From a bacterium (lineage in GTDB: Bacteria > Patescibacteriota > Minisyncoccia > UBA6257 > GWB1-50-10): DNA of 38,271 nt. The first letter of the stretch is position 1. Each line of letters starts with the position of its first letter. The position numbers and the translations under genes were made by a program. The notes under the pieces are model-generated. The model did no database searches. It was not told the DNA's origin and was given only the letters and a program-made list of their open reading frames with translations. Positions 7,281-38,271 of this stretch are shown here, piece by piece. The stretch covers positions 29,027-67,297 of the forward strand of contig JAKAHT010000001.1 in assembly GCA_021814805.1 (NCBI GenBank), read 5' to 3'.

Positions 7281-8092
7281 TTCATTATTTTTACGGCCCT
7301 GATTCCCTGAGAAGGAATCTTAAATTCAAAGATGCTTTAAACGAAATCTCCAAGAAGTCCGGCACTGTCGAGGAGATGGATGTCGATTTGGATGAAAAAG
7401 AAGATGCTTGGAAAGAAATCAAAGAGTTTGTAAACCAGCAGTCGATTTTCGGCGGGGTGAAGGTGGCGGTAGTCAGAAACCCTTCTTTTTCTGAAGATGA
7501 AAGATGGCTGGATTTCCTGAGGCAAAAGATATCTGACGGCAATATTCATATTTTTATGTCCGAGAGCCGCGCAAAGCCCCTTAAGGCCTTTGAATTTTTA
7601 GTCAAAAAACCTTCGGATTTTTACGAGTTCCAGGAACTTACCGGCAGCAACCTTTCTTCTTTCGTCGTATCGGAATCTAAAAAAAGAGGTTTCTCTTTTT
7701 CGCCTGAGGCTCTGTCTTTTTTTGTCTCATTTTTGGAAGGGCAAAAAGAAGGCAAAAGTTGGATGGCTGTAAATGAAATTGAAAAATTTTCTTTTTTAAG
7801 CAGAGAAACGATTTCCTTGGAGGATATGGCGAAGTCATCCCGTTTCCCTGACTTCGATGAGGTTTGGGTTTTGACCAAAAGGATTTTGAATTCGGATAAA
7901 TTGGGAGAAAGAGCTTATTTTCTGGAAAAACTTTTTATGGAAGAGGCTGACCCTTCTTATGTGTTTAACTCCCTAGCTTTCGGAGCAAAAGGCAGGGATC
8001 TTATGAAACTATCCGACTACGATATTATGGTAAAAAGCGGGAAACTTGATTTTCCCGAAGCGTTATTTAGTTTTGTTTTGGGAGGAGTTTAA
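7277..8092 (+). CDS. holA: DNA polymerase III delta subunit-like (HolA)
   Basis: I prefer the ATG at 7277, an ATGA overlap with the mutM stop. MIHYFYGPDSL resembles the delta N-terminus (YLLYGEE..L). NEIEKFSFLS..ISLEDM resembles the ELEKL..IT.EDV segment. This is a weak family call made by eye. Confidence 0.55.
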   Translation: MIHYFYGPDSLRRNLKFKDALNEISKKSGTVEEMDVDLDEKEDAWKEIKEFVNQQSIFGGVKVAVVRNPSFSEDERWLDFLRQKISDGNIHIFMSESRAKPLKAFEFLVKKPSDFYEFQELTGSNLSSFVVSESKKRGFSFSPEALSFFVSFLEGQKEGKSWMAVNEIEKFSFLSRETISLEDMAKSSRFPDFDEVWVLTKRILNSDKLGERAYFLEKLFMEEADPSYVFNSLAFGAKGRDLMKLSDYDIMVKSGKLDFPEALFSFVLGGV

Positions 8093-10297: not shown

Positions 10298-11653
10298 ATG
10301 AAACTTACTTTTTGCGGAGCAGCTAAGAATGTAACCGGTTCGAACTATCTCTTGGAATCCGGGAGTACAAAGATATTGATAGATTGCGGGCTGAACCAAG
10401 GAAGCGAATTTTGCGATGATTTAAACTATGAAAAATTTCCATATGAACCGGAGGAAATAACCGCCGTTATCATAACCCATGCTCATATAGATCACATAGG
10501 CAAATTACCCAAGCTCGTGAAGGAGGGATTTAAGGGAACAATCTATTCCACTTATCCCACGAGGGATTTCGCCGAATCGATGCTTTTAGATACGGCTCAC
10601 GTCCTTTTCGAGGAGGCTGAAAAAAAAGGGCGTCCGCCTCTTTATGACATAAGGGACATAGAAAAGACTATGCTTCTTTGGCAGTGTCGTGATTACCACG
10701 AAGATTTAGACATTGGCCCATTTTCCGTTGAATTATATGATGCCGGGCACGTTCTAGGATCGGCTTCGGTTCTCATGAGAGTCGAGAATAAAAAGATAGT
10801 TTTTTCAGGTGACTTGGGAAATGCCCCCGCCCCCTTCTTGAAAGAGACAGAATATCCCCAGGGCGCCGACTTTGTTTTAATAGAATCGGCTTATGGGGAC
10901 AGGTTGCATGAGCATTTGAATGAAAGGAAAAAACTTCTCGAGGAAACCGTAAAGAGAGCGATTGGATCTGGAGGCGTTCTTATGATTCCGGCCTTTGCCT
11001 TGGAGCGGACTCAGGAAATGCTTTTTGAGCTCAACGAACTCATGGAAAAAAACAGTCTGCCCAAGGTCCCGGTCTTCGTGGATAGTCCGTTGGCTATAAA
11101 GCTTACCGAAGTTTACGAGAAGTACTCCGAAAATCCGATGTATTTTAATGATAAAGTCATAGGTCTTATAAAATCGGGAGAAGATATTTTTAATTTTCCC
11201 GGTCTCCGGATGACTTTAACCAAAGACGAATCGAAGGCTATAAATGAAGTGCCGCCGCCGAAAGTCGTAATAGCCGGCGCCGGCATGTCCAACGGCGGAA
11301 GGATTCTTCATCACGAAATGAGATATCTGCCGGATCCTAAAAGCACCCTTCTGATAGTCGGTTATCAAAGCGTCAATTCTTTAGGAAGAAAACTTTTGGA
11401 AGGAGAAAAGGAGATATCTATTTTTGGAGAAGAAATAAAAGTTAAGGCCAAGGTAGCTTTCATAAGCGGCTACTCGGCCCATGCCGATCAAAAACAACTT
11501 CTTAAATGGGCCGCTTCGGTCGGTAAGGATTCAAAAAGAGTATTCATCGTCCAAGGAGAGGAAAATTCAGCAGATGCTTTGAGAAATAAAATAAAAACAG
11601 AATTGTACTTGAATGCCGAGATTCCTTCACTGAATGAAACGGTATTGTTATAA
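10298..11653 (+). CDS. MBL-fold beta-CASP family (CPSF/RNase J-like) metallo-nuclease
   Basis: 451 aa. HAHIDHIG (motif 2), DAGHVLGS, and the beta-CASP C-terminal motif GYSAHADQKQL. Confidence 0.8.
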   Translation: MKLTFCGAAKNVTGSNYLLESGSTKILIDCGLNQGSEFCDDLNYEKFPYEPEEITAVIITHAHIDHIGKLPKLVKEGFKGTIYSTYPTRDFAESMLLDTAHVLFEEAEKKGRPPLYDIRDIEKTMLLWQCRDYHEDLDIGPFSVELYDAGHVLGSASVLMRVENKKIVFSGDLGNAPAPFLKETEYPQGADFVLIESAYGDRLHEHLNERKKLLEETVKRAIGSGGVLMIPAFALERTQEMLFELNELMEKNSLPKVPVFVDSPLAIKLTEVYEKYSENPMYFNDKVIGLIKSGEDIFNFPGLRMTLTKDESKAINEVPPPKVVIAGAGMSNGGRILHHEMRYLPDPKSTLLIVGYQSVNSLGRKLLEGEKEISIFGEEIKVKAKVAFISGYSAHADQKQLLKWAASVGKDSKRVFIVQGEENSADALRNKIKTELYLNAEIPSLNETVLL

Positions 11654-11660
11654 TTTAAAT

Positions 11661-12323
11661 ATGCCGAATACTAAAAGAACAAAAGAAGTTTCCAAAAAGA
11701 TAAAAGAAAAAGACGGGCTTGATAAGTTTTTGAATCACGGAAGGACCAATCACTTGAAATACAAGATTTGTGTTTCGGGAGCGGCTGAAACGGGCCATTG
11801 TTCCAAAGATTCTTTTGAGAAAGCTGAAGCGGTAGGAAGAGAGATAGCCAAGCGTGGCTTGATACTTGTTACCGGCGCGACGACGGGCATGCCTTATTGG
11901 GCGGCCAAAGGTGCCAAAGAAGCTGGTGGGATAGTGGTGGGACTTTCTCCGGCAGTTTCGAAGATTGCTCACATAAAGACCTACCATCTGCCTCTCGATT
12001 ATCATGATTTGATAATCTACACCGGTTTTGATTATGCCGGCCGCAACCTTCTTCTCACAAGATCAGCTGACGCCATAATAACCATCTGCGGTAGGATGGG
12101 AACGCTCAATGAATTTACGATAGGATTTGAGGACAAAAAACCGATAGGGGTTCTTGAGGGAACGGGCGGCACGGCTGATATGTTGAGAGATATATTGGAA
12201 AAAGCTCACAGGGGATCTTCTAATGTGGTTTTTTCTGACGACCCATCCAGCCTTTTGGATAAAGTGATGGAGCTCGTGAAAATAGAGGAAAAGAAAAACG
12301 GCATCGACGGTAAAATACTATGA
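11661..12323 (+). CDS. TIGR00725/LOG-like (SLOG superfamily) Rossmann-fold protein
   Basis: VSGAAETGHC...LVTGATTGMPYWAAKGAKEAGG..VGLSP...ICGRMGTLNEF matches the LOG/TIGR00725 glycine-rich pattern. I prefer the ATG at 11661, because the track start at 11634 overlaps the upstream gene. Confidence 0.6.
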   Translation: MPNTKRTKEVSKKIKEKDGLDKFLNHGRTNHLKYKICVSGAAETGHCSKDSFEKAEAVGREIAKRGLILVTGATTGMPYWAAKGAKEAGGIVVGLSPAVSKIAHIKTYHLPLDYHDLIIYTGFDYAGRNLLLTRSADAIITICGRMGTLNEFTIGFEDKKPIGVLEGTGGTADMLRDILEKAHRGSSNVVFSDDPSSLLDKVMELVKIEEKKNGIDGKIL

Positions 12324-12673: not shown

Positions 12674-14002
12674 ATGGGAAATTCGAGCATGTCTTTTGAT
12701 TTTAAAAAGCTACTTCTTTATTTGATAATTTTTTCTTTGCCGATAGGGACGAAAAAATTCCTTTATTCTTTCAGTCTGCCTTTTAAATTACCGATCTCTT
12801 ACGGATCGGCCTTTCTTTATGTGTTAGATATCTTTGTTTTACTGTTCATATTTTTAAATATCAAAAGAATACACTTCAAGAAGATTTCTATATTCGCGTT
12901 TTTGGGCTTGGTCTTTTTGTCCGTGATTTTTTCATACAATTTTCCTCTGGCTTTATATTCATTCATTCATCTTATTCTCTTTTCCTTGTTTTCTCTGATC
13001 TTGGCCGACTTTTTGAAAAGAAAAGATGTCGATTTGAAGGACATTTTTTCTGTCGTCGGCGTGTCGGCTTTTCTCGAGGCCGTGGTTGGGATATTGCAAT
13101 TTAGGAATCAAGCGAGTCTGGGTCTTAAGATTCTCGGTGAGTCGGTATTGGGACCAATGACCGAAGGAGTGGCTAGAACCTCGACTGAGTTCGGTAATTT
13201 TCTCAGGGTTTACGGCACCATGCCTCACGCGAATATTTTAGCCGCTTTTCTTGTTTTGGGTTTTGCCGGATTGACTTATGTTTTTATGAAGTCGAGAAAC
13301 AAATTTGTTTTGGCGCCGATGTTTGTAATATTTTCCGGATTATTTCTGACTTTTTCTAGGTCCGGCTGGATAATATTCATATTTTTTGCCTCAGCTCTTT
13401 TGGTTTATGGTCTTTTGTCTAAGAATTTGAGAAGCAGGGCTTTTTTATTGGTAGGGGCGGTCGTCTCCTTTGTGATTTTTTTGGTTTTGATATTCGGTTC
13501 TCTGACTACGGCGAGAAGCAGTTTTTCAACTACGGAACCGTCGGTCACTTATCGCATAGATTATGATCTTATAGCCCTGAATCTCATAAGGTCTTATCCT
13601 TGGCTTGGTGTGGGAGCAGGCAATGAAATAATCGGCGGATTGCGGGGAGGGTTCTATCAAAAAGAGGGTTTGACTGAAAGTTGGCAGTGGCAGCCAATAC
13701 ATAATATTTATCTTCTTATTGCTTCAGATACCGGGCTTTTAGGATTGGCTTCCTTTTTGGTATTTTTATGGAGTGTGTTTTATCCGCTCATGAACAGTTT
13801 TTGGAGGGAGAGAAAAAACGAGCTTGGATTAGATCTTTTTTTCCCGTTGATTCTTGGTTTAGGCTGGCTATTTTTCGGTTTGGTGGATCACTTTTTTTGG
13901 GATTTAGAATCCGGCAGTTTGATGTTCTGGACGACCCTCGGTATCATGATGGGAGTCTGCCCCCGTAGTTCAACGGATAGAGCGCAAGCTTCCGAAGCTT
14001 GA
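12674..14002 (+). CDS. O-antigen ligase / Wzy_C-family polytopic membrane protein
   Basis: 442 aa with about 10 hydrophobic segments. LTFSRSGWI and HNIYLLIASDTGLLGL resemble the O-antigen ligase loop motifs. The last 44 nt, including the stop at 14000-14002, lie inside tRNA-Arg. Confidence 0.65.
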   Translation: MGNSSMSFDFKKLLLYLIIFSLPIGTKKFLYSFSLPFKLPISYGSAFLYVLDIFVLLFIFLNIKRIHFKKISIFAFLGLVFLSVIFSYNFPLALYSFIHLILFSLFSLILADFLKRKDVDLKDIFSVVGVSAFLEAVVGILQFRNQASLGLKILGESVLGPMTEGVARTSTEFGNFLRVYGTMPHANILAAFLVLGFAGLTYVFMKSRNKFVLAPMFVIFSGLFLTFSRSGWIIFIFFASALLVYGLLSKNLRSRAFLLVGAVVSFVIFLVLIFGSLTTARSSFSTTEPSVTYRIDYDLIALNLIRSYPWLGVGAGNEIIGGLRGGFYQKEGLTESWQWQPIHNIYLLIASDTGLLGLASFLVFLWSVFYPLMNSFWRERKNELGLDLFFPLILGLGWLFFGLVDHFFWDLESGSLMFWTTLGIMMGVCPRSSTDRAQASEA

Positions 14003-14030
14003 AATAGAGGTTCGATTCCTCTTGGGGGCA
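13959..14030 (+). tRNA. tRNA-Arg (anticodon CCG)
   Basis: Hand-folded cloverleaf. Acceptor GCCCCCG/TGGGGGC, D stem GTTC/GAGC, anticodon stem CAAGC/GCTTG with loop TTCCGAA, T arm AGAGG-TTCGATT-CCTCT, discriminator A. 72 nt. CCA is not encoded. Confidence 0.93.
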
Positions 14031-14036
14031 CATCAA

Positions 14037-14972
14037 ATGCAAAAAAAAGATTTTATACAGTTTTCAATAAAGAAAAATACATCTCTTAAGACCATGAGCA
14101 CTTTCGGGATAGGGGGGCGGTCGGAGTATTTTTGTTCCGTGGACAGCCCGGATAAATTTGTAGCTGTCTACGAGTGGGGCAAAAGAAATAATCTTAAGTT
14201 GAATATTTTTTCTGGCGGCAGCAATGTTGTTTTCCCGGACGAGAAACTTCGTGGTTTGACTTTGAGATTCTTCGGCGGTCGGATGTTTTTTAAGGATAAG
14301 ACTTGTCTTTCTGATGCCGGAGTTCTTCTTGGCGAAGTGATTAAAAAATCGCTGAGCCGAGGCTTAATGGGTCTTGAGACGCTTTCTGGAATACCCGGTA
14401 CCTTGGGCGGAGCCGTGGTCGGCAACGCCGGGGCTTATGGCCGCTCTATTTCAGAAATTGTGAAGAGAGTGGAAATATGGGATGGTAAAAAAAAGCAGTG
14501 GATTTCCAGGGAAGAATGCCGATTTTCCTATCGCGACAGCGTTTTTAAGCATAAACCCGTCTTAGTTTTAAGAGTTGAATTGGAATTTAAGAGTGGTCAT
14601 TCAGCTGAGCTTAGAAAGATATCGAGATCGATAATAAAAATAAGAGAAAAGAAGTATAAGCCAGGCTTGAAATGTCCGGGCAGTTTTTTCAAGAATGTGC
14701 TTATTTGCGATTTGTCTAAAAATTCGATGTCTAAAATAGATAAATCAAAAATAATAGAAGGCAAGGTTCCGGCCGGTTACCTTCTCGAGTCGGTGGGTTC
14801 CAAGGGAATGGTCTTTAAGGGCCTCAAGGTGGCTGATTTTCATGGCAATCTCATAATTAATAGCGGCAAAGCTAAAAGCTCGGATGTAAAAAAATTAGCC
14901 GATTTATTAAGGAAGAAGGTTTATAAAAAATTCGGCATCGTCCTCGAGGAAGAAGTGAGATACTTGCTATAA
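14037..14972 (+). CDS. murB: UDP-N-acetylenolpyruvoylglucosamine reductase
   Basis: TFGIGGRSEYF and FSGGSNVVF form the FAD-binding region, and the C-terminal domain is MurB-like. I prefer the ATG at 14037, which is 6 nt after the tRNA. The track start at 14022 lies inside the tRNA. Confidence 0.88.
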   Translation: MQKKDFIQFSIKKNTSLKTMSTFGIGGRSEYFCSVDSPDKFVAVYEWGKRNNLKLNIFSGGSNVVFPDEKLRGLTLRFFGGRMFFKDKTCLSDAGVLLGEVIKKSLSRGLMGLETLSGIPGTLGGAVVGNAGAYGRSISEIVKRVEIWDGKKKQWISREECRFSYRDSVFKHKPVLVLRVELEFKSGHSAELRKISRSIIKIREKKYKPGLKCPGSFFKNVLICDLSKNSMSKIDKSKIIEGKVPAGYLLESVGSKGMVFKGLKVADFHGNLIINSGKAKSSDVKKLADLLRKKVYKKFGIVLEEEVRYLL

Positions 14973-20004: not shown

Positions 20005-20055
20005 AGAAAAATAGTAATAAAAAATGCCCTAAAAAGCAAATGAAAAGCTGTTTTG

Positions 20056-20398
20056 TGGAGGTGGAGGGATCGAACCCTCGTCCAAGAAATTATTTAAAAG
20101 CATTCTACAAGTTTAGTGCCGAGCCGAGCCTGGCGCAGATGTGCTTCCTGTTATTTAATCCGTTTTACCGGAAGCTTTCTCAAACGGACGGGTCCGCGAT
20201 ATGACACCGGTTGTTCTCTAGCGGACGTTGAGGACCGATGTCCGGTTTAACGAATTAAACCGGAGCCGGCATTAAGCAAAAGCGAATGCCGGGGCTGCAA
20301 CTTTGTTGTTGTCAGTTCTTTTTTTGCTGTAGTTTTACGAGTTACCGCAACTCGACTTGCTGCTTTTAAAGAACTTTCCTGTCGAAACGTACACCCCC
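20056..20398 (-). ncRNA. ssrA: tmRNA (SsrA)
   Basis: The 5' end GGGGGUGUACGUUUCGACAGG pairs with the 3' end GAGGGUUCGAUCCCUC-CACCUCC-A. The acceptor stem GGGGGUG/CACCUCC carries the G3:U identity pair. An internal tag frame ends ...GUU GCA GCC CCG GCA UUC GCU UUU GCU UAA (VAAPAFAFA*). The gene follows smpB directly. Confidence 0.9.
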
Positions 20399-20838
20399 TA
20401 TTTATTAAACCTTTTTATTTCCTTTTCGACTTCGCGTTTACGAATAGTCTCGCGCTTGTCTTCTTTCTTTTTGCTTTTTCCTAAACCCATTTCAACCTTT
20501 ATTATGTTGTTTTTATTATACAATCTAAGAGGCAGGAGTGTCAACCCTTTTTCTTTTATTTTCCCGATCAAACTCCTCGTTTCTTGTTTTTTTACAAGAA
20601 GCCTCCTTGTTCTTTTGGGGTCGTAGCTTTTTATGCTGTTTTGCGATTGATAAGGTGGGATATCCAAGTTTATTATCCAAAGCTCTTCGTCTTTTACGGT
20701 TGCGTAAGCCCCGCTTATGTTGGCTCTCCCATTCTTTATGGATTTTACTTCAAATCCTTTGAGCTCTATGCCGGCCTCGAATTTCTCGAGTATGTTGTAA
20801 TCGAAATAGGCTTTTTTATTATCGGTTATCGTCGGCAT
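20398..20838 (-). CDS. smpB: SsrA-binding protein SmpB
   Basis: 146 aa. NKKAYFDYNILEKFEAGIELKGFEVKSI and the basic C-terminal tail are canonical SmpB. Confidence 0.95.
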   Translation of the reverse strand: MPTITDNKKAYFDYNILEKFEAGIELKGFEVKSIKNGRANISGAYATVKDEELWIINLDIPPYQSQNSIKSYDPKRTRRLLVKKQETRSLIGKIKEKGLTLLPLRLYNKNNIIKVEMGLGKSKKKEDKRETIRKREVEKEIKRFNK

Positions 20839-20882
20839 AGTATTTATATTATCTTATATTGTTATATACTAGAAATGTGAAA

Positions 20883-22466
20883 ATGAGTATCAAGGAGAAA
20901 ATAAGCGGCGCCTTAGCCGAATTATTGGGAGAAGAAAATGGTTTTTCGGTTGATTTGCCCGATCGGAAGGCGACCGATGCCGATTATTCGACCAATGCCG
21001 GATTTGTCTTAAGCAAGAAGTCTGGGGAAAACCCAAACGCTTCGGCCGAGGCGGTCTCGAGAAAATTAAAGGAATCGTATCCTAATCTTTTCGATAAAAT
21101 AGAAACCAAGGGAGGTTTCATAAATATGTGGGTGAGCCCCCTGGTCCTTAAAGAGGAAATCCTTCTTGTTTTAAAGGATGAAGGGAGATATGGATCTTCC
21201 TCCGCTCTCGAAGGGAGGAATATTCAGGTTGAGTTTATTTCAGCCAATCCTACAGGACCTTTGACTTTGGCAAATGGCCGAGGTGGTTTTTATGGCGATG
21301 TTTTATCGAACATTCTGGAGTTTTCCGGGGCTAAAGTGGAAAGAGAATATTATGTGAATGATGCCGGAAACCAGGTTTTGACGCTTGGAAAATCAATCTT
21401 GTCGGCTCTGGGATTCATTGAAGACGAAGAAGAATTTTATAAGGGTTCTTATATCAAAGAATGGGCTTTAAAAAACAGTTCTGTTGTCGAAAAAAGAAAA
21501 GCTGACCCTTCTGGGGTTGGAGAATCGGCTGCTCATGATTTTCTTTCTTCCATAAAATCCGTCGTTGAAGGGAAAGCCCGCATAAGGTTTGATAGATATA
21601 CTTCCGAGAAAAATCTTGGAGAGGAAGGTTTGGTTAAAAAAGCCTTGGAGGTATTGAAAAAATCAGGTTTGGTATATGACTCTGAAGGAGCCACTTGGCT
21701 AAGGACTACCGATTTTAAGGACGATAAGGATCGTGTTCTTATAACGAGCGACGGGTTGCCGACTTATTTTCTGTCGGATGCCGGCCACTACCTTGAAACC
21801 TTGGAGAGAGGATTTGATTGGAAAATAAACATACTTGGACCAGACCACTATGGTTATGTCAAAAGAATACAGGCCGTAGCCAAAATTCTGGGTTTTCGCC
21901 GGTCGGAGGTCTTGATAACTCAGGCTATTTTAATAAAAAAGGACGGCGAATTTGTCAGGATGTCCAAGCGAAAGGGTGAATTTGTAACCTTTGAAGAGCT
22001 GGTGGATGAAGTCGGCGTCGATACGGCCAGGTTTTTCTTTCTTATGGTCGGTCGGGAATCTCATATTGATTTTGACTTAGCATTGGCCAAAGAAAAATCA
22101 TCGCGCAATCCGGTTTTTTACGCCGAATATGCTTATGTGAGGGCCAATAAAATAATATCCAATTATGGAAAGAGTTTTGACTTATCGGCGGATTTGGCTT
22201 GCTTGAATTCTTCTCCGGAAAGGGAATTGATGTCGGTCATATCGCGCCTGCCGGATGTCGTTTCTTATTCATCCAAGACTTATGAAATCCACCATCTGAC
22301 CAAATACGCTCTGGATTTAGCCCGGGCTTTTCATAACTTCTACGAGAAGGAAAGAGTGATAGGCGAAAAAGAAGAAACGGCCAGGTTGATTCTGGTTTCC
22401 GCCTTCCTTTCTGTTATGCAAAATACTCTCCGCCTTTTAGGAATAGTTCCCCCGGAAAGTATGTAG
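20883..22466 (+). CDS. argS: arginine--tRNA ligase
   Basis: FISANPTGPL..., DHYGYVKR, RMSKRKGEFV (KMSKS-like) and a C-terminal DALR anticodon-binding region. I prefer the ATG at 20883 (MSIKEK) to the TTG at 20859. Confidence 0.88.
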   Translation: MSIKEKISGALAELLGEENGFSVDLPDRKATDADYSTNAGFVLSKKSGENPNASAEAVSRKLKESYPNLFDKIETKGGFINMWVSPLVLKEEILLVLKDEGRYGSSSALEGRNIQVEFISANPTGPLTLANGRGGFYGDVLSNILEFSGAKVEREYYVNDAGNQVLTLGKSILSALGFIEDEEEFYKGSYIKEWALKNSSVVEKRKADPSGVGESAAHDFLSSIKSVVEGKARIRFDRYTSEKNLGEEGLVKKALEVLKKSGLVYDSEGATWLRTTDFKDDKDRVLITSDGLPTYFLSDAGHYLETLERGFDWKINILGPDHYGYVKRIQAVAKILGFRRSEVLITQAILIKKDGEFVRMSKRKGEFVTFEELVDEVGVDTARFFFLMVGRESHIDFDLALAKEKSSRNPVFYAEYAYVRANKIISNYGKSFDLSADLACLNSSPERELMSVISRLPDVVSYSSKTYEIHHLTKYALDLARAFHNFYEKERVIGEKEETARLILVSAFLSVMQNTLRLLGIVPPESM

Positions 22467-22472
22467 GTTTTT

Positions 22473-22501
22473 TTGCCAAAGACCCGGTAACCGGATAAAA
22501 T
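22473..22501 (+). promoter_or_regulatory. candidate promoter TTGCCA-17-TAAAAT, placed 7 nt before the ileS ATG (leaderless geometry)
   Basis: TTGCCA at 22473-22478, a 17-nt spacer, TAAAAT at 22496-22501, ATG at 22509. The 7 nt in between contain no Shine-Dalgarno sequence. Confidence 0.45.
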
Positions 22502-22508
22502 ACTACTT

Positions 22509-25500
22509 ATGTTCGACGATCTCGATAAATTTTCCTTGCCGGAACTCGAAGAAAAGGTTTTGGGGTTTTGGGAAAGAAACGGCATATTTGAAAAGTCTTT
22601 AAGTAAAAATAAATCGAAGAAGAAGTTCGTATTTTACGAGGGTCCGCCTTACGCGAACGGTCGCCCTGGCATACATCACGTTTTGGCCCGTGTGGTTAAG
22701 GATGTGGTTTTGCGCTACAAAACAATGAGAGGTTTCGAGGTGCCCCGTAGAGCCGGCTGGGATACGCACGGTCTCCCTGTTGAAATGGCGGCCGAAAAAG
22801 CTTTGGGATTGAAATCAAAAAAAGAGATAGAAAAATACGGAGTAAAACTCTTCAACGAAAAGGCCAAGGAGCAGGTATGGGTGTACAAGGATGAATGGGA
22901 AAATCTTACCCGCCGGATAGGCTATTGGCTGGATTTGAAAAATGCTTATGTGACCTATGCCCCGGAATACATAGAGACCATCTGGTGGACTCTCTCCGAA
23001 ATACATAAAAAGAATCTTCTTTATAAAGATCACAAGATAGTTCCTTGGTGTACGAGATGCGGCACGGCCCTGTCTTCCCATGAACTGGCCCAAGGTTATA
23101 AAACAGTCGAAGATAATTCCGTTTATGTTAAGTTCAAGCTCAAGCCCGGCCAAAAAATAGGCAGCCTCTTTGTTTCTGATGATAATACTTATATTTTGTC
23201 CTGGACGACCACGCCCTGGACCCTGCCGGGAAATGTGGCTTTGGCTGTCGGCGAGAATATTAAGTATGCAGTTTTAGGCACTGATGAAAATTCCGAAAAA
23301 TATGTGATTGCTTCGTCGTTGGCGGATAAAGTTTTGGGTGCTAATAACAAGTCGATTGATGGTTTGAGCGGCAAAGATCTGATCGGTTTGTCTTATGAAT
23401 CGTTGTTCAAGGTAAATTTCTTAGAAACTGATAAATCGTACAAAATATATCAGGCGGATTTCGTTACCACCGGAGACGGGACTGGAGTAGTCCACACGGC
23501 TGTTATGTACGGCGAGGATGATTATGTTTTAGGAAAGAAGGTCGGCTTGCCCGGCAAACATACCGTGGATGAAGAGGGGAAATTCGTGGAGGGGGTACCC
23601 GGATTACAGGGACTTTATGTCAAATCCAAGGAGACGGAAGATAAAATTTTCGAACATTTGAAACAAAATGGTAATTTGTTGAAAATAGAGCCTTATTCGC
23701 ATGAGTATCCTCATTGTTGGCGTTGCGGGACTCCGATAGTTTATTACGGCCGGACTTCTTGGTTTATAGCCATGTCCAGGTTGAGAAAAGAACTTTTAAA
23801 TCGGAATAAAAAAATAAACTGGATGCCGGAACACGTTAAGGAAGGCCGATTTGGTGAGTGGCTTCGCGAAGTGAAAGATTGGAATCTCTCAAGAGAAAGA
23901 TACTGGGGTGCGCCACTTCCCATATGGGAGTGCGGTAGTTGCAATCATGTCGAAGTTGTGGGCAGCTTGCCGGCTTTAAATAAGCTTGCCGGAGGTTCTA
24001 AAAATAATTATTGGGTGATGAGACACGGTGAAGCCGAAAATAATGTTCTGGATTTGATAGATTCCGGTTCTGGAAATTTCCATCTGACATCCAAAGGAAA
24101 AAGGGAGGTGGAACTTTCCATCAGTAAATTAAAAAAAGAGCTGGCTTTAAAACATCAGAAAATAGATTTTATTATATCTTCCGACATTCTCCGAACAAAA
24201 GAGACCGGGAAGATAGACGAGAAAATTATTTCCGGATCCAATTTTGAGATCGATAAAAGACTGGAGGAAATACATTTAGGACCGGGACTTTCCGGATGCC
24301 ATGACGAAAAGTACCATAAATTTTTCCCGACTTATGAATCAAAGTTTGAAAAGAGACCGGATAAAGGAGAGTCTTTGAGAGATCTAAGAACGCGCTTGTG
24401 GAATTTTATGCGTGACCTTGAGAATAAATACCAGGATAAAAATATATTAATAGTCACTCACGAATATCCCATTTGGATGCTTTTTGAGATATCCGAAGGC
24501 TGGAGTGAAAAAAGGGCCGTGTTGGAAAAAGAAAAAAGAGGCAAGGATTTCGTTTCTTTTGCCGAAATAAAGAAACTTGATTTCAAAAGTGTTCCCAGAA
24601 ATGACAGCGGGGAGATAGACATTCATAGACCCTTTGTTGATGAGATAAATTTTAAATGCCCGAAGTGTAATAATTCGGTCATGAAGAGAATTAAGGAAGT
24701 GGCTGATGTTTGGTATGATTCCGGGGCTATGCCTTTCGGTGAGGAGCATTTCCCGTTTGAAGAAGGCGTTAGAAGTATTAAAAATATTAAACCCGGCAAA
24801 CTAATACCTTTTCCAGCGGATTATATAGCAGAAGGTATGGATCAAACCCGCGGCTGGTTTTACACGCTTCTCGCCATTTCGACCGCCTTGGGCTACGAAG
24901 CTCCCTATAAAAACGTTATAACTTTCGGCCTCATCAACGACAAGTTCGGCCAAAAAATGTCCAAATCAAAAGGCAATATAGTAGAGCCGTTTTCGGTGAT
25001 AAATAAATACGGAGTCGATGCGGTAAGATGGTATTTCATGAGCGGTACACCCTTCGGGGAGCCGAAAAATTTCGATGAAAACGAAATAGCCAAAAAACTG
25101 CGCCAAATTCATCTCATTGTTTACAACTCATTTATTTTCTGGAAAACCTATGCCTTGCGAGACGCCAAAATTTTGAAACGGAAGGGCTTCAAGTCTTCTA
25201 ATATTCTCGACAAGTGGATTGTTTCGAGATTAAACAGTTTGATAGACGAGACGACAAAAATGCTCGATAAATATGAGATACGAGAGGCTTCTCTTGAAAT
25301 AGAGTCGTTCTTAGATGACTTTTCGAGGTGGTATATAAGAAGATCCAGAAGACGTTTCCAGAAACCGGAAGATAAAAAAGATTATGAATCGGCCTCCACG
25401 GTTATGTATTCGGTGCTTCTGACTCTTTCTAAAATCATGGCCCCGTTCACTCCGTTTTTCTCGGAAGCTTTATATTCGTCCCTTAATGCTTCCAAAATAT

Positions 25501-26048
25501 CTGTCCATCTTGAGGATTGGCCGAAAGCCGACAAAAAGCTCATAGATAAAAAGCTTTCTCAATCGATGATTTTTGTGAGAGATTTGGCGAGTAAGGTATT
25601 GTCCGAGAGGGCTGAAATCGGCATAAAAGTAAGGCAACCGCTTTCTCTTTTAAGTATTAAAGGATCCAAATCAGACCTTGCGCCGGCGCTCGTGGAAATA
25701 TTAAAGGAGGAAGTGAATGTTAAGAAAATATCTTTTGATTCTGAGCTTTCTAAGGATTTTGTCTTGGATGCCACGATAACGCCCGAACTAAAAGAAGAGG
25801 GAATGGTGAGAGAATTAATAAGGATGATTCAAGATTTAAGACAAGACGGGGGATTCACGCCCAAGGACCGGGTGGTAGTTATGTTGGAGGCTTCTCAGGA
25901 TTTAAATTCCGTTGTTTTGAAAAATAAATCAATCCTTCAAAAAGAAGTTAATGCCAAGGATGTAGTCCTGAAAAAATCTGACAAGTTCGATGTGGAATTT
26001 GAGACTAAATTCGAATCCTCTCCCATTTGGCTAGGTCTTAAAAAGTAA
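22509..26048 (+). CDS. ileS: isoleucine--tRNA ligase (type 2) with an internal histidine-phosphatase-like insertion
   Basis: 1179 aa. PPYANGRPGIHHVLAR (HIGH region), the editing domain TTTPWTLPGN, KMSKSKGN, and zinc Cys pairs CGSC (475-478) and CPKC (717-720). Residues ~499-698 carry RHGEAENN, SSDILRTKET and IVTHE. Confidence 0.96.
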   Translation: MFDDLDKFSLPELEEKVLGFWERNGIFEKSLSKNKSKKKFVFYEGPPYANGRPGIHHVLARVVKDVVLRYKTMRGFEVPRRAGWDTHGLPVEMAAEKALGLKSKKEIEKYGVKLFNEKAKEQVWVYKDEWENLTRRIGYWLDLKNAYVTYAPEYIETIWWTLSEIHKKNLLYKDHKIVPWCTRCGTALSSHELAQGYKTVEDNSVYVKFKLKPGQKIGSLFVSDDNTYILSWTTTPWTLPGNVALAVGENIKYAVLGTDENSEKYVIASSLADKVLGANNKSIDGLSGKDLIGLSYESLFKVNFLETDKSYKIYQADFVTTGDGTGVVHTAVMYGEDDYVLGKKVGLPGKHTVDEEGKFVEGVPGLQGLYVKSKETEDKIFEHLKQNGNLLKIEPYSHEYPHCWRCGTPIVYYGRTSWFIAMSRLRKELLNRNKKINWMPEHVKEGRFGEWLREVKDWNLSRERYWGAPLPIWECGSCNHVEVVGSLPALNKLAGGSKNNYWVMRHGEAENNVLDLIDSGSGNFHLTSKGKREVELSISKLKKELALKHQKIDFIISSDILRTKETGKIDEKIISGSNFEIDKRLEEIHLGPGLSGCHDEKYHKFFPTYESKFEKRPDKGESLRDLRTRLWNFMRDLENKYQDKNILIVTHEYPIWMLFEISEGWSEKRAVLEKEKRGKDFVSFAEIKKLDFKSVPRNDSGEIDIHRPFVDEINFKCPKCNNSVMKRIKEVADVWYDSGAMPFGEEHFPFEEGVRSIKNIKPGKLIPFPADYIAEGMDQTRGWFYTLLAISTALGYEAPYKNVITFGLINDKFGQKMSKSKGNIVEPFSVINKYGVDAVRWYFMSGTPFGEPKNFDENEIAKKLRQIHLIVYNSFIFWKTYALRDAKILKRKGFKSSNILDKWIVSRLNSLIDETTKMLDKYEIREASLEIESFLDDFSRWYIRRSRRRFQKPEDKKDYESASTVMYSVLLTLSKIMAPFTPFFSEALYSSLNASKISVHLEDWPKADKKLIDKKLSQSMIFVRDLASKVLSERAEIGIKVRQPLSLLSIKGSKSDLAPALVEILKEEVNVKKISFDSELSKDFVLDATITPELKEEGMVRELIRMIQDLRQDGGFTPKDRVVVMLEASQDLNSVVLKNKSILQKEVNAKDVVLKKSDKFDVEFETKFESSPIWLGLKK

Positions 26049-32531: not shown

Positions 32532-32890
32532 TTTTTATATTCCAGTTTTGCTGATGAGCCTATAAGGAAGTTGACGAAGCTGATTATGAGGGTAGCTATT
32601 ATAAGCTCTTCCAATCCTTGAATTGTAATTGCTTGAGAAAGTATGTCAAGGACATAGATAAGTATGGCGTTTATAACCAAGGTAAAAAGGCCGAAGGTAA
32701 GAAGTATAATTGGCCCGGTTATAAGTTTTATAATAGGTTTCAATATTATATTTATGACGGTGAGTATGAGAGCTGCTAATCCGAGAGATTTTAAATCACC
32801 GGAAAAAAATCCAGGCAAGAAATAGTTGGTTATGAGTATAGCGACGGCGTTTACAAATATGTGGAATATGAACTTGGCTATGAGTCTCAT
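32528..32890 (-). CDS. phage holin family IV / DUF360-type 4-TM membrane protein
   Basis: 120 aa. The LPGF..., ..N..LKPI..L.T.P...LT.GLF.LV.NA pattern is characteristic of the YvlD/DUF360 family. Confidence 0.6.
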   Translation of the reverse strand: MRLIAKFIFHIFVNAVAILITNYFLPGFFSGDLKSLGLAALILTVINIILKPIIKLITGPIILLTFGLFTLVINAILIYVLDILSQAITIQGLEELIIATLIISFVNFLIGSSAKLEYKK

Positions 32891-33510
32891 TGTCCCAGTG
32901 ATTTGTTGAAATCGCTTATTTTTTGGTTAAGAGTTTGATTTAATGTGTTTATTGAATCAACCTTCTCGTTTATTGAGGCTAAGCTTGCTTTTATTTCGTT
33001 TTCAATGGCCGGGGTGTCGTTCGGAATCGAGGAGGACAGAAGGTCCAAAAAATTACCCATGAGTTTCGTGTAGTCCATAAACTCATTGGTCAAGGATATT
33101 TCGTCTGAAATGGCCTCGGATAGTATTTTCTGATCACCGGGCACCGCGGCGTTTCCTATCGATTGAGAAAACTTTTGAAGCCCGTCGGATAATGATTTGG
33201 CTTTATCGTACGACAGAGAATTGGTATCCTTGGCGGTTTTTATGAGAGCTAAAGTCTTTCCGGTGTCGCTCGTCTTTCTGGATTCTTGTATGGCTCTTAT
33301 TTCGTCTGACATTTTGCTATTGAGGCCGGCTATGTCCTCACTTATTTGAGAGAGGCCCTGCCGGGCTTCTAAAATATTTTGGGAGGCTTCTTGGTTTTTT
33401 TGACTGGCTGTTGCGTAATAAACCGAAGAAGCCGCTATGATGAGCACTGGCAGTATGACGAAAATAAGCTGCTTTTGTACTTTATTGTCGTTGTTTTTGC
33501 GTTTAAACAT
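32887..33510 (-). CDS. hypothetical membrane-anchored helical protein
   Basis: 207 aa with one N-terminal TM (LIFVILPVLIIAASSVYYA). The remainder is Ser/Asn/Gln-rich and helical. It is the first gene of the minus-strand operon. Confidence 0.5.
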   Translation of the reverse strand: MFKRKNNDNKVQKQLIFVILPVLIIAASSVYYATASQKNQEASQNILEARQGLSQISEDIAGLNSKMSDEIRAIQESRKTSDTGKTLALIKTAKDTNSLSYDKAKSLSDGLQKFSQSIGNAAVPGDQKILSEAISDEISLTNEFMDYTKLMGNFLDLLSSSIPNDTPAIENEIKASLASINEKVDSINTLNQTLNQKISDFNKSLGQ

Positions 33511-36213: not shown

Positions 36214-37731
36214 CTATCTCGCGTATTCCACTGCTCTCACTTCTCGTATTACGGTTACCTTAATTTCTCCCGGATATTGAACATCGGATTGGATTTTATT
36301 GGATATTTTCTTGGCTAACTCCAGAGCTCCGAAGTCGTCTATTTTTTCCGGCACTACGAAAACCCTGACCTCGCGGCCGGCGGAAACGGCATAGGATTGC
36401 TTCACTCCTTCAAAGCTTCCCACCACTTTCTCGATATCTTCCAATCTTTTTATGTATTTTTCGAGCGTATCGCGTCTTGCTCCGGGTCTCGCGGCTGATA
36501 TGATGTCGGCGGCGGCCACTATATACGATTCCGGTGAAGAGTAAGGGTATTCCTCGTGATGTGATTCCATCGCCTGGATCACCTTGTCGTCGATGTTATA
36601 CTTTTTCAGGAGTTTTCTTCCTATTTCGACGTGTGTACCTTCCACTTCGTGGTCTATCGCTTTGCCTATATCATGAAGTAGAGCTCCCTTTTTTGCTATA
36701 TCAACATTCAAATGGAGTTCTTGGGCCATTATGCCTGATATGTGCGCCATTTCTATGGAGTGGAGTAATACATTTTGGCCATAGCTGGTTCTGAAATTCA
36801 ATCTTCCGAGGAGGTAAGTGATTTCTTTAGGCAAATCCAAAACGCCCACTTCATAAGCCGCCTCATCTCCTATTTTTTGGATTCTTTGTTCTAACTCTTG
36901 TCTTGATTCTTCCACTTTTTCTTCTATCTTGGCCGGGTGAATCCTGCCGTCCTTTATGAGTTTCTCAAGTGCCATCCTGGCAAGTTCCCTCCTCAATGGA
37001 TCGAAAGAAGACAGGACAACGCTTTCCGGGGTTTCGTCCACTATAACTTCGACGCCGGTTAGTCTTTCAAATGATCTGATATTCCTTCCTTCTTTACCTA
37101 TTATTTTAGCCTTAAGATCCTCGTCGGGTAGATTTACCACGCTCGTCGTGACATCGGCTACTGCATTTCTGGAATATCTTTGGATGGCCGTGGTTATTAT
37201 TTCGTTGGCCTTAGATTCTACCTCATCTCTCTTCTCCTTTTCGAGCTTGGTTATGGAATTGGCTAAGTCTTGTCTGTATGAAGACTCTACTTCCTCGAAA
37301 ATAGCCTTCTTAGCTTCTTCTCTTGTGAGTCCCGAGACATGCTCGAGCTCGCTCAAGGCCTTTTGCTTGATTTCTTGTATATCGTTTTCCGCCTTCTTTA
37401 TTTCGCCCTCCTTAGTCTTAAGATATTTTTCTTCTCCTTCGAGATCTTTGAATTTTTGATCGAGCGAATCTTCGCGCTTGATGAGCCTGTCTTCAAGCTG
37501 TCTTAGTTCTTGTTTTCTTTCCTTTTCCTCTTTGTTTATTTCGGAAAGTATCGAAGAGGCTTTATCTTTAGCCTCGACGATTATTTCTTTAGCCTCTCTT
37601 TTTGCGGTTTCAAGTTCTGCTTCGGCTTTTTGCTCTATCGAGTTTTGTATTTTCTTCGCAACCGATAATCTTATTAAATAGCCTATTCCCAAGCCTAATA
37701 AACCGCCTGCTATCCAGGGGATTAAGTTCAT
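36214..37731 (-). CDS. rny: ribonuclease Y
   Basis: 505 aa. An N-terminal TM helix, a coiled coil, a KH domain (IIGKEGRNIRSFE) and an HD domain (LLHDIGKAIDHE). Confidence 0.95.
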   Translation of the reverse strand: MNLIPWIAGGLLGLGIGYLIRLSVAKKIQNSIEQKAEAELETAKREAKEIIVEAKDKASSILSEINKEEKERKQELRQLEDRLIKREDSLDQKFKDLEGEEKYLKTKEGEIKKAENDIQEIKQKALSELEHVSGLTREEAKKAIFEEVESSYRQDLANSITKLEKEKRDEVESKANEIITTAIQRYSRNAVADVTTSVVNLPDEDLKAKIIGKEGRNIRSFERLTGVEVIVDETPESVVLSSFDPLRRELARMALEKLIKDGRIHPAKIEEKVEESRQELEQRIQKIGDEAAYEVGVLDLPKEITYLLGRLNFRTSYGQNVLLHSIEMAHISGIMAQELHLNVDIAKKGALLHDIGKAIDHEVEGTHVEIGRKLLKKYNIDDKVIQAMESHHEEYPYSSPESYIVAAADIISAARPGARRDTLEKYIKRLEDIEKVVGSFEGVKQSYAVSAGREVRVFVVPEKIDDFGALELAKKISNKIQSDVQYPGEIKVTVIREVRAVEYAR

Positions 37732-37798: not shown

Positions 37799-38271
37799 AT
37801 GAAGCAAACAACTGTATTGGTGGTTTTGGATGGGTGGGGAATAGGTCCGATGGACGGTTCCAACCCCATCTATAGAAGTGAGCTTGCGACCATAAATTAT
37901 TTGCAGGCCAATTTTCCCTGCGGAGCTCTCCAAGCTTCGGGCATGTCGGTCGGTCTTCCTTATGATGAAGAGGGTAACAGCGAAGTGGGTCATATGACCA
38001 TGGGGGTCGGTCGGGTTTTTTGGGAGCATTTTCCAAGGATATCCCTTTCCATAAAATATAAAAATTTCTTCGAGAATAAAGCGATACTCCAGGCTTTTAA
38101 TTGGGCTAAAGAAAAGAAATCTGATTTGCACCTTGTGGGACTTTTAACCGAGGCTAATGTCCATTCTTCTCTTGAGGTTTTGGAGGCCTTAATCAAGATG
38201 GCCGGCGATCAAGGAGTGGAAAATTTTTATCTCCATATTTTTTCCGACGGGCGGGACAGTGCTCCGGAGTC
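37799..38271 (+). CDS. gpmI: 2,3-bisphosphoglycerate-independent phosphoglycerate mutase, N-terminal part (runs off the window)
   Basis: My translation reads MKQTTVLVVLDGWGIGP...NSEVGHMTMGVGRV...HLVGLLTEANVHSS...HIFSDGRDS, which are iPGM signatures. It is not in the ORF track because there is no stop in the window. The minus ORFs at 37610-38196 are shadows. Confidence 0.9.
   Translation, partial: MKQTTVLVVLDGWGIGPMDGSNPIYRSELATINYLQANFPCGALQASGMSVGLPYDEEGNSEVGHMTMGVGRVFWEHFPRISLSIKYKNFFENKAILQAFNWAKEKKSDLHLVGLLTEANVHSSLEVLEALIKMAGDQGVENFYLHIFSDGRDSAPE

Follow-up and report, generated by a model that had tools for sequence, protein, structure and literature searches.

A histidine-phosphatase domain nested in, or encoded directly upstream of, the isoleucyl-tRNA synthetase of Patescibacteria

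Based on the comparison of the ileS gene in the window (the whole 38,271-nucleotide stretch of DNA that was analysed) with its relatives, a type-2 isoleucyl-tRNA synthetase (IleRS) with an inserted histidine phosphatase (HP) has been recognized. Judged from alignments and gene order, this HP subfamily is dedicated to IleRS and alternates between a nested form, found in three flexible surface loops and in one to four copies, and a small separate gene directly upstream of an ileS that lacks the insert. The separate-gene form, the other insertion sites and the copy-number variation of the IleRS-linked HP are new here. The gene, its upstream neighbour and its main features are as follows.

20859..22466 (+): argS, the upstream neighbour, an ORF 42 nt before ileS
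22509..26048 (+): ileS, type-2 isoleucyl-tRNA synthetase with nested phosphatase (ORF, TIGR00392, Pfam, Foldseek)
22668..22679 (+): class I signature in the non-canonical GXHH form, G54-I-H-H57 (translation)
23931..23942 (+): first Cys pair of the CP3 zinc knuckle, C475-x-x-C478 (translation; invariant in 71 close homologues)
23991..24611 (+): inserted HP domain, residues 495-701, site A (PF00300, gap in the 8c8w alignment, AF2, Foldseek)
24021..24029 (+): R505-H506-G507, nucleophile motif (aligned to R9/H10 of PhoE 1EBB)
24192..24194 (+): R562, second phosphate-binding Arg (aligned to the Arg of PhoE '..GRALET')
24267..24269 (+): E587, predicted general acid (aligned to the Glu of PhoE 'RLREIHLG')
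24459..24461 (+): H651, second catalytic His (aligned to the His of PhoE 'IVTHG')
24657..24668 (+): second Cys pair of the CP3 zinc knuckle, C717-x-x-C720 (translation; invariant in close homologues)
24954..24968 (+): KMSKS motif, K816-S820 (translation)

The ileS gene is a single unbroken ORF of 1179 aa, as a sequence-only reading of this DNA had stated, and no second ileS was found within the 38-kb window. The protein passes the curated ileS equivalog threshold (TIGR00392 of NCBIfam, 878.4 bits against a cut-off of 621.4), and Pfam recognizes tRNA-synt_1 (E-value = 1e-114, split), Anticodon_1 and DUF5915 (residues 1009-1160) in addition to His_Phos_1, while residues 196-402 match structures of the CP1 editing domain (1wk8/1wny/1ue0). 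Full-length homology extends to the IleRS2 of Priestia megaterium (8c8u/8c8v/8c8w; E-value = 5e-236 for 8c8w) and the IleRS of Thermus thermophilus (1ile; 2e-233), with Foldseek TMt values of 0.79 for 8c8v and 0.91 for 1ile. The signature motifs, the CP1 editing domain and the type-2 C-terminal domain are present, the best-matching structures are IleRS2, and the domain order (CP1, CP3 zinc knuckle, KMSKS, DUF5915) is that of the type-2 (eukaryote-like, mupirocin-resistant) enzymes; by these matches, the 1179-aa protein is a complete type-2 IleRS host. Among 71 close homologues, P53 and H57 of the signature region are invariant and H56 is nearly so, and K816, M817, K819 and S820 of the KMSKS motif are invariant, with S818 nearly so. 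The GXHH variant, which is common to this IleRS and some IleRS2, has been tied in IleRS2 to mupirocin hyper-resistance (PMC10485003). A link between that resistance and the phosphatase was rejected, because nested, separate-gene and HP-free IleRS all include examples of HXGH as well as GXHH.

The sequence-only reading had placed a motif-complete HP in frame between the two Cys pairs of CP3, and this is borne out by the ORF, by PF00300, by the residue alignment to PhoE and by AF2; the residues that it named (W473, C475/C478, R505/H506 at nt 24021-24026, R562, E587, H651 and C717/C720) are all correct. The Pfam model His_Phos_1 (PF00300) matches residues 502-665 with 84.4 bits in the full protein (cut-off 21.7, E-value = 1e-23) and with 89.1 bits on the insert alone, the E-values ranging from 1e-23 to 4e-25 overall. 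In the alignment with the type-2 structure 8c8w, residues 10-494 correspond to chain positions 10-478 and residues 702-1130 to 485-908; the gap between these blocks means that about 207 residues, an independent enzyme domain, replace about six residues at the tip of the CP3 zinc-knuckle hairpin. The full-length AF2 model (pLDDT 87.9, pTM 0.80) has pLDDT values of 90-97 in the insert region, and the insert modelled alone has a pLDDT of 94.6. Foldseek relates the insert, with a probability of 1.00, to 6s2q, 9mmh, 1h2e, 4ij5 and 4pza, and it shares the fold of PhoE/YhfR (1EBB, 1H2E), PspA (4IJ5), GpgP Rv2419c (4PZA), 6S2Q and 9MMH (TM 0.68-0.76), of which 6S2Q is mycobacterial hydrolase 1, 9MMH the riboflavin-pathway HFP and 4IJ5 a phosphoserine phosphatase. 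The small-molecule branch-1 HPs are, like the insert, about 200 aa long, and their R-H...R...E...H set aligns with it residue by residue; however, identity is only 17-24%, the insert scores under every curated subfamily cut-off and, unlike them, this HP is always nested in IleRS or encoded directly upstream of ileS.

In 248 full-length nested homologues, R505, H506, R562 and H651 are kept in 100%, G507 in 98% and E587 in 97%, and on this alignment the HP catalytic set is under strong purifying selection; the cap/pocket region of the HP (residues 588-620) is poorly conserved. With a PF00300 score above threshold, the RHG motif, two Arg, a second His and an acidic donor, and the alpha/beta HP fold, the insert is apparently a complete branch-1 histidine phosphatase and is predicted to be active. 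It had also looked, by eye, more AT-rich than its flanks. This is modestly so: the insert has a GC of 0.377, compared with 0.443 for the N part and 0.404 for the C part, and a GC3 of 0.382, compared with 0.484 and 0.445, respectively, but other stretches of the same ileS are as AT-rich as the insert.

More specific identities were disfavoured or rejected. The curated models for dPGM score far under their cut-offs (dPGM_arch, 57-59 bits versus 225; PRK01295, 21-26 versus 316; GpmB PRK03482, 30-35 versus 261), as do those for SixA (23.7-27.2 versus 74.5), CobC or alpha-ribazole phosphatase (TIGR03162, 48.7-53 versus 162.9) and PspA (36.9-41.3 versus 350). A moonlighting dPGM-type role, raised earlier as a speculation, is disfavoured both by these scores and by an iPGM-like gene in the window; the iPGM-like N-terminus starts at 37799 (+), where it had already been noted, and was recognized by eye from its LDGWG motif. 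The sequence after E587 is EIHLG, against what is presumably ERHYG in dPGM. The model for IleRS with a GNAT domain (NF040702, ileS_w_GNAT) provides an earlier case of a bacterial IleRS with an enzyme domain inside it, the inserted enzyme class being different; the present protein reaches 330.8 bits versus its 1999, and Pfam finds no GNAT domain in it. An intein or mobile element was rejected, because Pfam finds no Hint, intein or endonuclease domain in the protein and the insert co-diverges with its host. Intein junctions have a Cys/Ser/Thr and His-Asn pattern, which is absent from the junctions of the insert (...LAGGSKNNYW... and ...RNDSGEIDIHRP...). A relation to defence systems was also rejected, since PADLOC models gave no match at E<=0.01 to the insert and two free-standing homologues.

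The nested HP is not a one-off but the standard form of IleRS among the relatives of this organism, a large group of ultra-small bacteria. PF00300 is present in all 120 of the best IleRS homologues, and 77 of 80 GTDB species-representative loci (Patescibacteria wherever a taxon is named) contain the full IleN-HP-IleC ORF, so that the nested architecture proposed earlier extends across the relatives. The identical protein occurs on at least six contigs. A junction-insert-junction profile matches 806 clusters (50% identity) at E<=1e-30; of the 150 best clusters, almost all cover it in one stretch. Because the same nested junctions recur in hundreds of independent assemblies, a chimeric assembly is excluded. 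Pairwise distances of insert and host correlate among the nested forms (r = 0.53), and the levels of identity are similar, at 45% in the insert and 50% in the anticodon-binding domain. In searches that were built around the IleRS junctions, all proteins that contain this HP subfamily were IleRS. The relatives in databases include some fragments that are split or frameshifted. One protein (P0011), in which the C-terminus of His_Phos is combined with the zinc knuckle of IleRS and with adenylate kinase, looks like a mis-join at CxxC motifs.

Besides the CP3 tip, two low-confidence AF2 loops serve as insertion sites in other IleRS.

24768..24797 (+): site C, loop 754-763, empty in this ileS (AF2 pLDDT <50)
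25152..25202 (+): site B, linker 882-898 just before the anticodon-binding domain, empty in this ileS (AF2 pLDDT 68-75)

In other lineages, site C accommodates either a second phosphatase or a domain of the P-loop kinase-like or GNAT type (insertions in P0117/P0151, P0144 and P0166, and in P0109 by motif-based site call only). Of these, P0144 has the P-loop kinase-like domain beside the HP, in a single cluster with weak matches (Pnkp1, E-value = 0.06), and P0166 combines GNAT domains and the HP in one protein. Site B is occupied by a phosphatase in Abawacabacteria/Gracilibacteria-type and other IleRS (P0156, P0117, P0151, P0069 and P0126). A form with site B only exists in Abawacabacteria/Gracilibacteria, and because its nearest insert-free relatives (62-63% identity) include a Gracilibacteria IleRS, an independent insertion is indicated. 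Sites A and C emerge from strands flanking the active-site motifs DWxxSRxRYWG...PIW and DVWxDSG...DQTRGW. Tandem arrays of two to four HP copies are found in some lineages. In the multi-copy and alternative-site proteins, the complete extra copies always keep R/H/R/E/H, and two C-terminally truncated copies keep the catalytic residues in their preserved part, the later positions being missing or misaligned.

The same HP also exists as a separate gene. Six free-standing homologues were looked up, and each of them immediately precedes an ileS that has no insert, at a distance of -4 to +8 nt. The free-standing gene usually comes right after argS: the order is argS-HP-ileS at four loci (L083, L084, L088 and L089), and at L087 argS and HP are separated by two further genes. 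The order argS-ileS is that of L082. In a metagenome scan, the high-scoring free HPs with enough downstream sequence are all followed by ileS on the same strand, overlapping it or at most about 40 nt away in all but one case (L105, about 715 nt), whereas ileS was beside none of the 22 lower-scoring HPs of the same scan. The free HPs are up to 75% identical to a nested domain, keep the general acid and the nucleophile His, and are very basic (pI about 10), as are control HPs from the same metagenomes (median pI 9.8). At the loci examined, no gene for a kinase, a toxin or repair is a constant neighbour. The IleRS tree requires six switches between the nested and separate forms, a number obtained with the full data and again in each of 60 bootstraps. 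The neighbour-joining tree of the HP domains is star-like, and for this reason the question of one or several acquisitions was judged from the insertion positions and the IleRS-core tree.

By the chemistry of the family, H506 would attack a phosphomonoester held by R505, R562 and H651, E587 would protonate the leaving group, and the phospho-histidine would then be hydrolysed. Since the insertion site is not fixed and the free and nested forms interchange, the HP would need no fixed geometry relative to the synthetic site; its anatomy suggests that the target is something that comes into contact with IleRS, which the HP probably reaches in trans or by means of a flexible tether. We tentatively favour, at somewhat under even confidence, a bifunctional enzyme in which an IleRS-dedicated HP would remove a phosphate that blocks isoleucylation, the de-blocking role itself being a speculative guess of low confidence. 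The blocking phosphate could lie on the acceptor end of tRNA-Ile, as a 2'/3'-phosphate or a pyrophosphorylated CCA, or alternatively on IleRS as phospho-Ser/Thr/His, and its removal would keep one essential charging reaction going. It is possible but doubtful that the HP provides charging with its own quality or rescue function, unblocking the tRNA or IleRS itself; it would take a 2'/3'-phosphate or a toxin-added (pyro)phosphate off the CCA end, or reverse an inhibitory phosphorylation by Hip-like kinases. The poor conservation of residues 588-620, the basic free forms and the P-loop kinase-like variant hint weakly at a macromolecular substrate over a metabolite. Against the de-blocking reading we counted that control HPs are equally basic, that the nearest folds are all small-molecule phosphatases, that tandem arrays of active-looking copies fit enzyme dosage better than one-to-one repair or self-regulation, and that neither a consistently adjacent kinase, toxin or repair gene nor a PADLOC match was found. 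We know of no HP-fold enzyme that acts on RNA ends. As an analogy, the HP-fold kinase-phosphatase 6-phosphofructo-2-kinase/fructose-2,6-bisphosphatase (1TIP) joins an HP to another nucleotide-using enzyme, and the RNA end-healing kinase-phosphatases T4 Pnkp and bacterial Pnkp1 are a further one. The situation here is different from that of these bifunctional enzymes in that the partner is an aminoacyl-tRNA synthetase and the domain is inserted internally rather than fused end to end.

Several other explanations have to be weighed against de-blocking. We can lend only limited credence to a housekeeping phosphatase for small molecules or nucleotides (for example a sugar phosphate, phosphoserine or a nucleotide) that is merely co-expressed with IleRS or tethered to it; the gene would lie near ileS by chance, its proximity would lead to repeated in-frame capture into permissive loops, and tethering would mean stoichiometric expression only, with no mechanistic coupling to aminoacylation. 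The closest structures (PhoE, PspA, GpgP, the riboflavin-pathway HFP and mycobacterial hydrolases) are indeed all small-molecule HPs, free and nested forms interchange while the position in IleRS varies, two to four tandem copies fit dosage, and the insertion sites are just the most flexible loops. However, the ileS linkage is exclusive for this subfamily, the 22 other HPs of the same samples being unlinked, and it spans deep divergence and several IleRS lineages; at least three insertion sites are retained in an essential enzyme; the substrate-cap region has none of the conserved specificity pocket expected of a dedicated metabolite enzyme; and the dPGM, CobC, PspA and SixA models are all far under their cut-offs. 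It is improbable that the HP hydrolyses PPi or AMP, products of the IleRS reaction that arise in excess through its editing cycles, and so drives activation locally. IleRS is an editing synthetase with a high futile use of ATP, sites A and C emerge from strands beside active-site motifs, and extra copies would raise turnover, but PPi and AMP come from all aminoacyl-tRNA synthetases, yet the HP subfamily was found in IleRS (by junction-based searches). Moreover, HP enzymes are not known to us as pyrophosphatases, AMP dephosphorylation would be wasteful for nucleotide-salvaging organisms, site B is distant in the chain from the catalytic core, and the free HP is untethered.

An even less probable explanation is that the domain is catalytically silent and serves for structure or tRNA binding, the HP fold being a scaffold or a clamp for phosphates, for instance those of the tRNA (backbone or 5'-phosphate). 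Added synthetase domains often bind RNA, and the Arg/His pocket could hold a backbone phosphate; however, pseudoenzymes normally lose the general acid or the nucleophile His, whereas here E587 (97%) and the nucleophile His (100%) are kept in the 248 sequences, in every complete duplicated copy and in the free-standing forms. Almost no weight is given to an artefact or selfish element, be it a chimera of the assembly, an intein-like element left unspliced, or a segment recently inserted by horizontal transfer. Although the GC and GC3 of the insert are under those of the flanks and split or frameshifted fragments exist among database relatives, the same junctions are found in hundreds of assemblies and in 77 of 80 species representatives, the identical protein is on at least six contigs, Pfam detects no Hint/intein or endonuclease domain, and insert and host co-diverge (r = 0.53; identity of 45% versus 50% in the anticodon-binding domain).

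No paper describing an IleRS with a phosphatase domain was found, IleRS phylogeny papers included, which is in line with the earlier impression of an undescribed synthetase architecture; the papers naming CP3 gave its position, and tRNA contacts of CP3 were absent from them. Where the nested proteins are named, NCBI calls them only 'class I tRNA ligase family protein' and JGI isoleucyl-tRNA synthetase, and the omission of the phosphatase from the NCBI names is an annotation gap.

Aminoacyl-tRNA synthetases are among the most conserved enzymes, and bacterial ones with a second, unrelated catalytic domain are, to our knowledge, rare. The HP module is maintained as a nested domain or as an adjacent upstream partner gene across much of Patescibacteria, and its presence in intact form inside or beside IleRS across hundreds of lineages, in three loops and with repeated switching, is strong 'Rosetta-stone' evidence for a functional pairing, which is so far without a published explanation. 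The insertions also provide a natural map of the places at which IleRS tolerates the insertion of whole domains, useful for engineering. If the rescue reading is true, this would be the first case of an aminoacyl-tRNA synthetase equipped with an unblocking phosphatase, a new functional class of bifunctional synthetase, and a new substrate class for the histidine-phosphatase fold. In short, the pairing may reveal a new step that sustains tRNA charging, by repair, regulation or defence against toxins.

The ileS gene of the window encodes a type-2 isoleucyl-tRNA synthetase (IleRS) with a histidine phosphatase (HP) nested inside it in frame. This architecture, proposed earlier from a sequence-only reading, is borne out by Pfam, in which His_Phos_1 matches residues 502-665 at 84 bits (cut-off, 21.7), and the residue numbers and nucleotide positions given in that reading were all correct. 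The gene and its surroundings are as follows.

22509-26048, + strand: ileS, type-2 IleRS with nested phosphatase, 1179 aa, a single unbroken ORF
20859-26048, + strand: argS-ileS block
20053-20838, - strand: tmRNA (127 bits; tag DNNKVAAPAFAFA) and smpB, divergent from and upstream of argS-ileS
11634-12323, + strand: SLOG cluster4 (LDcluster4) family protein, adjoining a beta-CASP/RMMBL RNA-type metallo-hydrolase
13959-14031, + strand: tRNA-Arg(CCG), overlapping two predicted ORFs
36214-37731, - strand: RNase Y, a large gene (RNase_Y_N, KH and HD domains) directly before the ORF at 37799
37799-38271, + strand: partial ORF starting MKQTTVLVVLDGWGIG..., which by eye resembles the N-terminus of cofactor-independent phosphoglycerate mutase

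The tRNA-Arg(CCG) gene covers the last ~44 nt of the mechanically called ORF 12674-14002 (Wzy_C/O-antigen-ligase-like) and the first nucleotides of the murB-like ORF 14022-14972, both of which are probably shorter in reality than listed. Two ORFs, 7256-8092 (+, 278 aa) and 32887-33510 (-, 207 aa), have no Pfam match.

Besides His_Phos_1, Pfam recognizes in the IleRS a class I synthetase catalytic domain in two pieces, an anticodon-binding domain and DUF5915, the C-terminal domain of type-2 IleRS, and the protein reaches 878 bits with the curated ileS equivalog model TIGR00392 (cut-off, 621). The host belongs to type-2 IleRS. In the alignment to IleRS2 of Priestia megaterium (8c8w), residues 10-494 and 702-1130 correspond to residues 10-478 and 485-908, and therefore ~207 residues of the window protein stand in place of ~6 of the reference. 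The insert, which scores 89 bits against His_Phos_1 when scanned alone, is flanked by the two cysteine pairs of the CP3 zinc knuckle (C475/C478 and C717/C720). Its AT-rich appearance, noted by eye before, is real to some extent: GC is 0.377 as against 0.443 and 0.404 in the flanks, and GC3 is 0.382 as against 0.484 and 0.445.

The signature motif of the synthetase, G54-I-H-H57 (22668-22679), is GXHH in place of HXGH, a swap that in IleRS2 leads to mupirocin hyper-resistance (PMC10485003). Both motifs occur among relatives with and without the phosphatase; the variant does not track the presence of the HP, and a link between the two is ruled out.

The insert can be aligned to PhoE of Bacillus (1EBB/1H2E) and PspA of Hydrogenobacter (4IJ5), with R505/H506, R562, E587 and H651 coinciding with the catalytic residues of both. 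AlphaFold2 modeled the entire protein with a pLDDT of 87.9 and a pTM of 0.80 (90-97 pLDDT in the insert), and the isolated insert with a pLDDT of 94.6. By Foldseek, the entire model matches IleRS2 and the IleRS of T. thermophilus (TMt 0.79-0.91), and the insert matches small histidine phosphatases (TM 0.68-0.76, 17-24% identity), its fold resembling the mycobacterial hydrolase 6S2Q, the riboflavin-pathway HFP 9MMH, PhoE, PspA and GpgP. None of the curated HP subfamilies tested fits the insert; dPGM, GpmB, CobC, PspA and SixA all score far under their cut-offs. The guest belongs to branch 1 of the histidine phosphatase superfamily, outside every curated subfamily tested. Across 248 aligned full-length homologues, R505, H506, R562 and H651 are each 100% conserved, as is S558, followed by E621 (99%), G507 (98%), R629 (98%) and E587 (97%); the substrate-cap region (residues 588-620) is poorly conserved. 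Identity to the window protein averages 45% in the insert, 50% in the anticodon-binding domain and 38% in the C-terminal domain; the insert evolves about as fast as the anticodon-binding domain and more slowly than the C-terminal domain. Judged from these alignments and models, the insert is predicted to be a real folded phosphatase, apparently active, and its active site is under purifying selection in all of the forms.

An artefact or a rarity is ruled out by the distribution. At least six contigs, from NCBI, ENA and Logan assemblies, carry the identical 1179-aa protein, and PF00300 is present in all 120 of the best full-protein homologues (56-66% identity). A scan of GTDB, with one genome per species, gave at least 80 loci, and 77 of the 80 listed have IleRS-N, phosphatase and IleRS-C in a single ORF. 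All of the titles that name a taxon belong to Patescibacteria: Paceibacteria/Parcubacteria, Yonath-, Taylor-, Nomura-, Vogel-, Zambryski-, Colwell-, Yanofsky-, Magasanik- and Doudnabacteria. Among 1.84 billion representatives, 806 clusters (50% identity) fitted a junction-insert-junction profile at E ≤ 1e-30, and in almost every one of the best 150 the match ran over both junctions as one stretch; the few matched in several stretches are multi-copy and other-site variants.

In the database annotations of P0029, P0178, P0187, P0194 and others, nested proteins, where named at all, appear in NCBI under no more specific title than "class I tRNA ligase family protein" and in JGI as isoleucyl-tRNA synthetase; one annotation pipeline, it seems, fails to name them specifically because of the insertion. 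Of the forms from Abawacabacteria/Gracilibacteria with the HP just ahead of the anticodon-binding domain, most bear the name "isoleucine--tRNA ligase" and one is a "hypothetical protein". Six short called proteins (P0003-P0006, P0014 and P0022) end or shift frame in or beside the phosphatase region despite contigs of up to 194 kb, and are probably assembly frameshift errors, not genuine split genes. In P0011 (298 aa, on a 10.5-kb JGI contig), an unrelated N-terminus is combined with the phosphatase's C-terminal half, the Cys pair of the IleRS CP3 and a C-terminal portion of adenylate kinase, as if similar CxxC zinc motifs had been mis-joined or had recombined.

Among free-standing proteins, the closest homologues are 184-221 aa long and 35-41% identical to the insert. 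All six whose loci were inspected (P0013, P0015, P0016, P0017, P0018 and P0024) are encoded immediately upstream of, and on the same strand as, an insert-free ileS (926-977 aa), with a 4-nt overlap or a 3-8 nt gap. At the loci with upstream sequence, argS precedes the free HP as it does in the window, directly in four and with two other genes in between in L087. A further 80 loci came from a metagenome scan for which the free-standing forms served as seeds. Every high-scoring free HP (at least 176 bits on the insert HMM, with enough downstream sequence; 19-20 loci) is followed on the same strand by an insert-free IleRS, within ~40 nt or overlapping except in L105 (~715 nt); none of the 22 lower-scoring histidine phosphatases in the same scan adjoins ileS. 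Distant relatives, whichever form of the phosphatase they have, repeat the order smpB, argS, (phosphatase), ileS, and infC-rpmI-rplT often belongs to the block too. A complete IleRS and an equally complete HP make up a conserved unit, realized either as an internal-insertion fusion or as adjacent genes. With the insert taken out, a neighbour-joining tree built on the IleRS core (902 columns, 112 taxa) calls for six changes between the nested and separate states, with the full data and in 60 of 60 bootstrap replicates. The changes may have run in either direction, and may also reflect differential loss from an ancestor with both forms. Free-standing P0024 and the nested domain of another lineage, L115, share 75% identity over 193 residues.

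Alignment of the unusual matches revealed two further insertion points, B and C, besides the zinc-knuckle site (A). Site C lies between DVWxDSGxMP and PADxIxEGxDQTRGW (window residues ~746-768; pLDDT below 50 at 754-763), and site B just ahead of the anticodon-binding domain (window residues ~882-898; pLDDT 68-75). Proteins of the P0156 type (nine clusters, 68-100% identical; Candidatus Abawacabacteria/Gracilibacteria where named) carry the HP solely at B. Their nearest relatives (62-63% identity, one named Gracilibacteria) have no phosphatase, which points to an independent insertion. P0117 and P0151 have one HP at C and one at B, P0069 has HPs at both A and B, and two to four tandem copies exist in P0104, P0109, P0133, P0139, P0153 and L141 (2134-6621). 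The R, H, R, E and H are retained in every complete copy; one copy each in P0104 and P0173 is cut off C-terminally and lacks the later catalytic positions. In some IleRS lineages that carry the HP, other enzymes also occupy site C: a P-loop kinase-like domain in P0144 (residues ~722-905; AAA_18 32.6, AAA_33 27.5 and Zeta_toxin 25.6 bits) and a GNAT acetyltransferase domain in P0166 (residues ~900-1060), which has a second GNAT at residues ~265-415, within the first 420, apparently in the CP1 editing domain (a placement made without alignment). The loops of IleRS appear to be hot spots for whole-enzyme capture. The P0117 contig (L171, GC 0.48) carries purA, DAHP synthase, PFOR and an SLH-domain protein, and P0166 (L170) lies in DNA with a GC of 0.58 and has identical copies on contigs of up to 2.1 Mb. 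Because such surroundings are unusual for Patescibacteria, the hosts of these two proteins may lie outside the phylum, and the architecture may reach other phyla.

By the chemistry of the family, catalysis would pass through a phospho-H506 intermediate, with the phosphate held by R505, R562 and H651, and E587 serving as the acid. Because the HP occurs in three loops, in tandem arrays and in a free form, it would need no set geometry relative to the synthetic site, and may work in trans or tethered on something that meets IleRS. Our proposal, speculative and rather more apt to fail than to hold, is that the HP strips a phosphate that blocks isoleucylation, from the acceptor end of tRNA-Ile or from IleRS itself. 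The exclusive linkage of this HP subfamily to ileS, the apparent absence of a conserved metabolite pocket, the basic character of the free forms (a poorly controlled comparison) and the single variant with both kinase and phosphatase are all consistent with such de-blocking. The main rival is that the HP is a small-molecule phosphatase with no tie to ileS beyond co-expression. Against de-blocking, the folds nearest to the insert in Foldseek are small-molecule phosphatases, the tandem copies suggest dosage, and we know of no HP-fold enzyme that acts on RNA ends. Moreover, we could not find any partner kinase, toxin or repair gene conserved near the HP/ileS loci, and the PADLOC models gave no match.

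One catalogued precedent for an enzyme domain embedded in IleRS is NCBIfam ileS_w_GNAT, of which the window protein is not a member, and no mention of a phosphatase in any IleRS was found in the literature, including the full text of recent papers on IleRS phylogeny and structure. The data are not new, the sequences being in public databases with automatic domain annotation; the new part lies in recognizing and interpreting them. The conclusions at the level of architecture are, we consider, practically certain, and the original observation is both correct and wider than it first seemed. This IleRS is an accreted-domain synthetase; the added part is a second catalytic domain, one that has a counterpart encoded by a separate gene.
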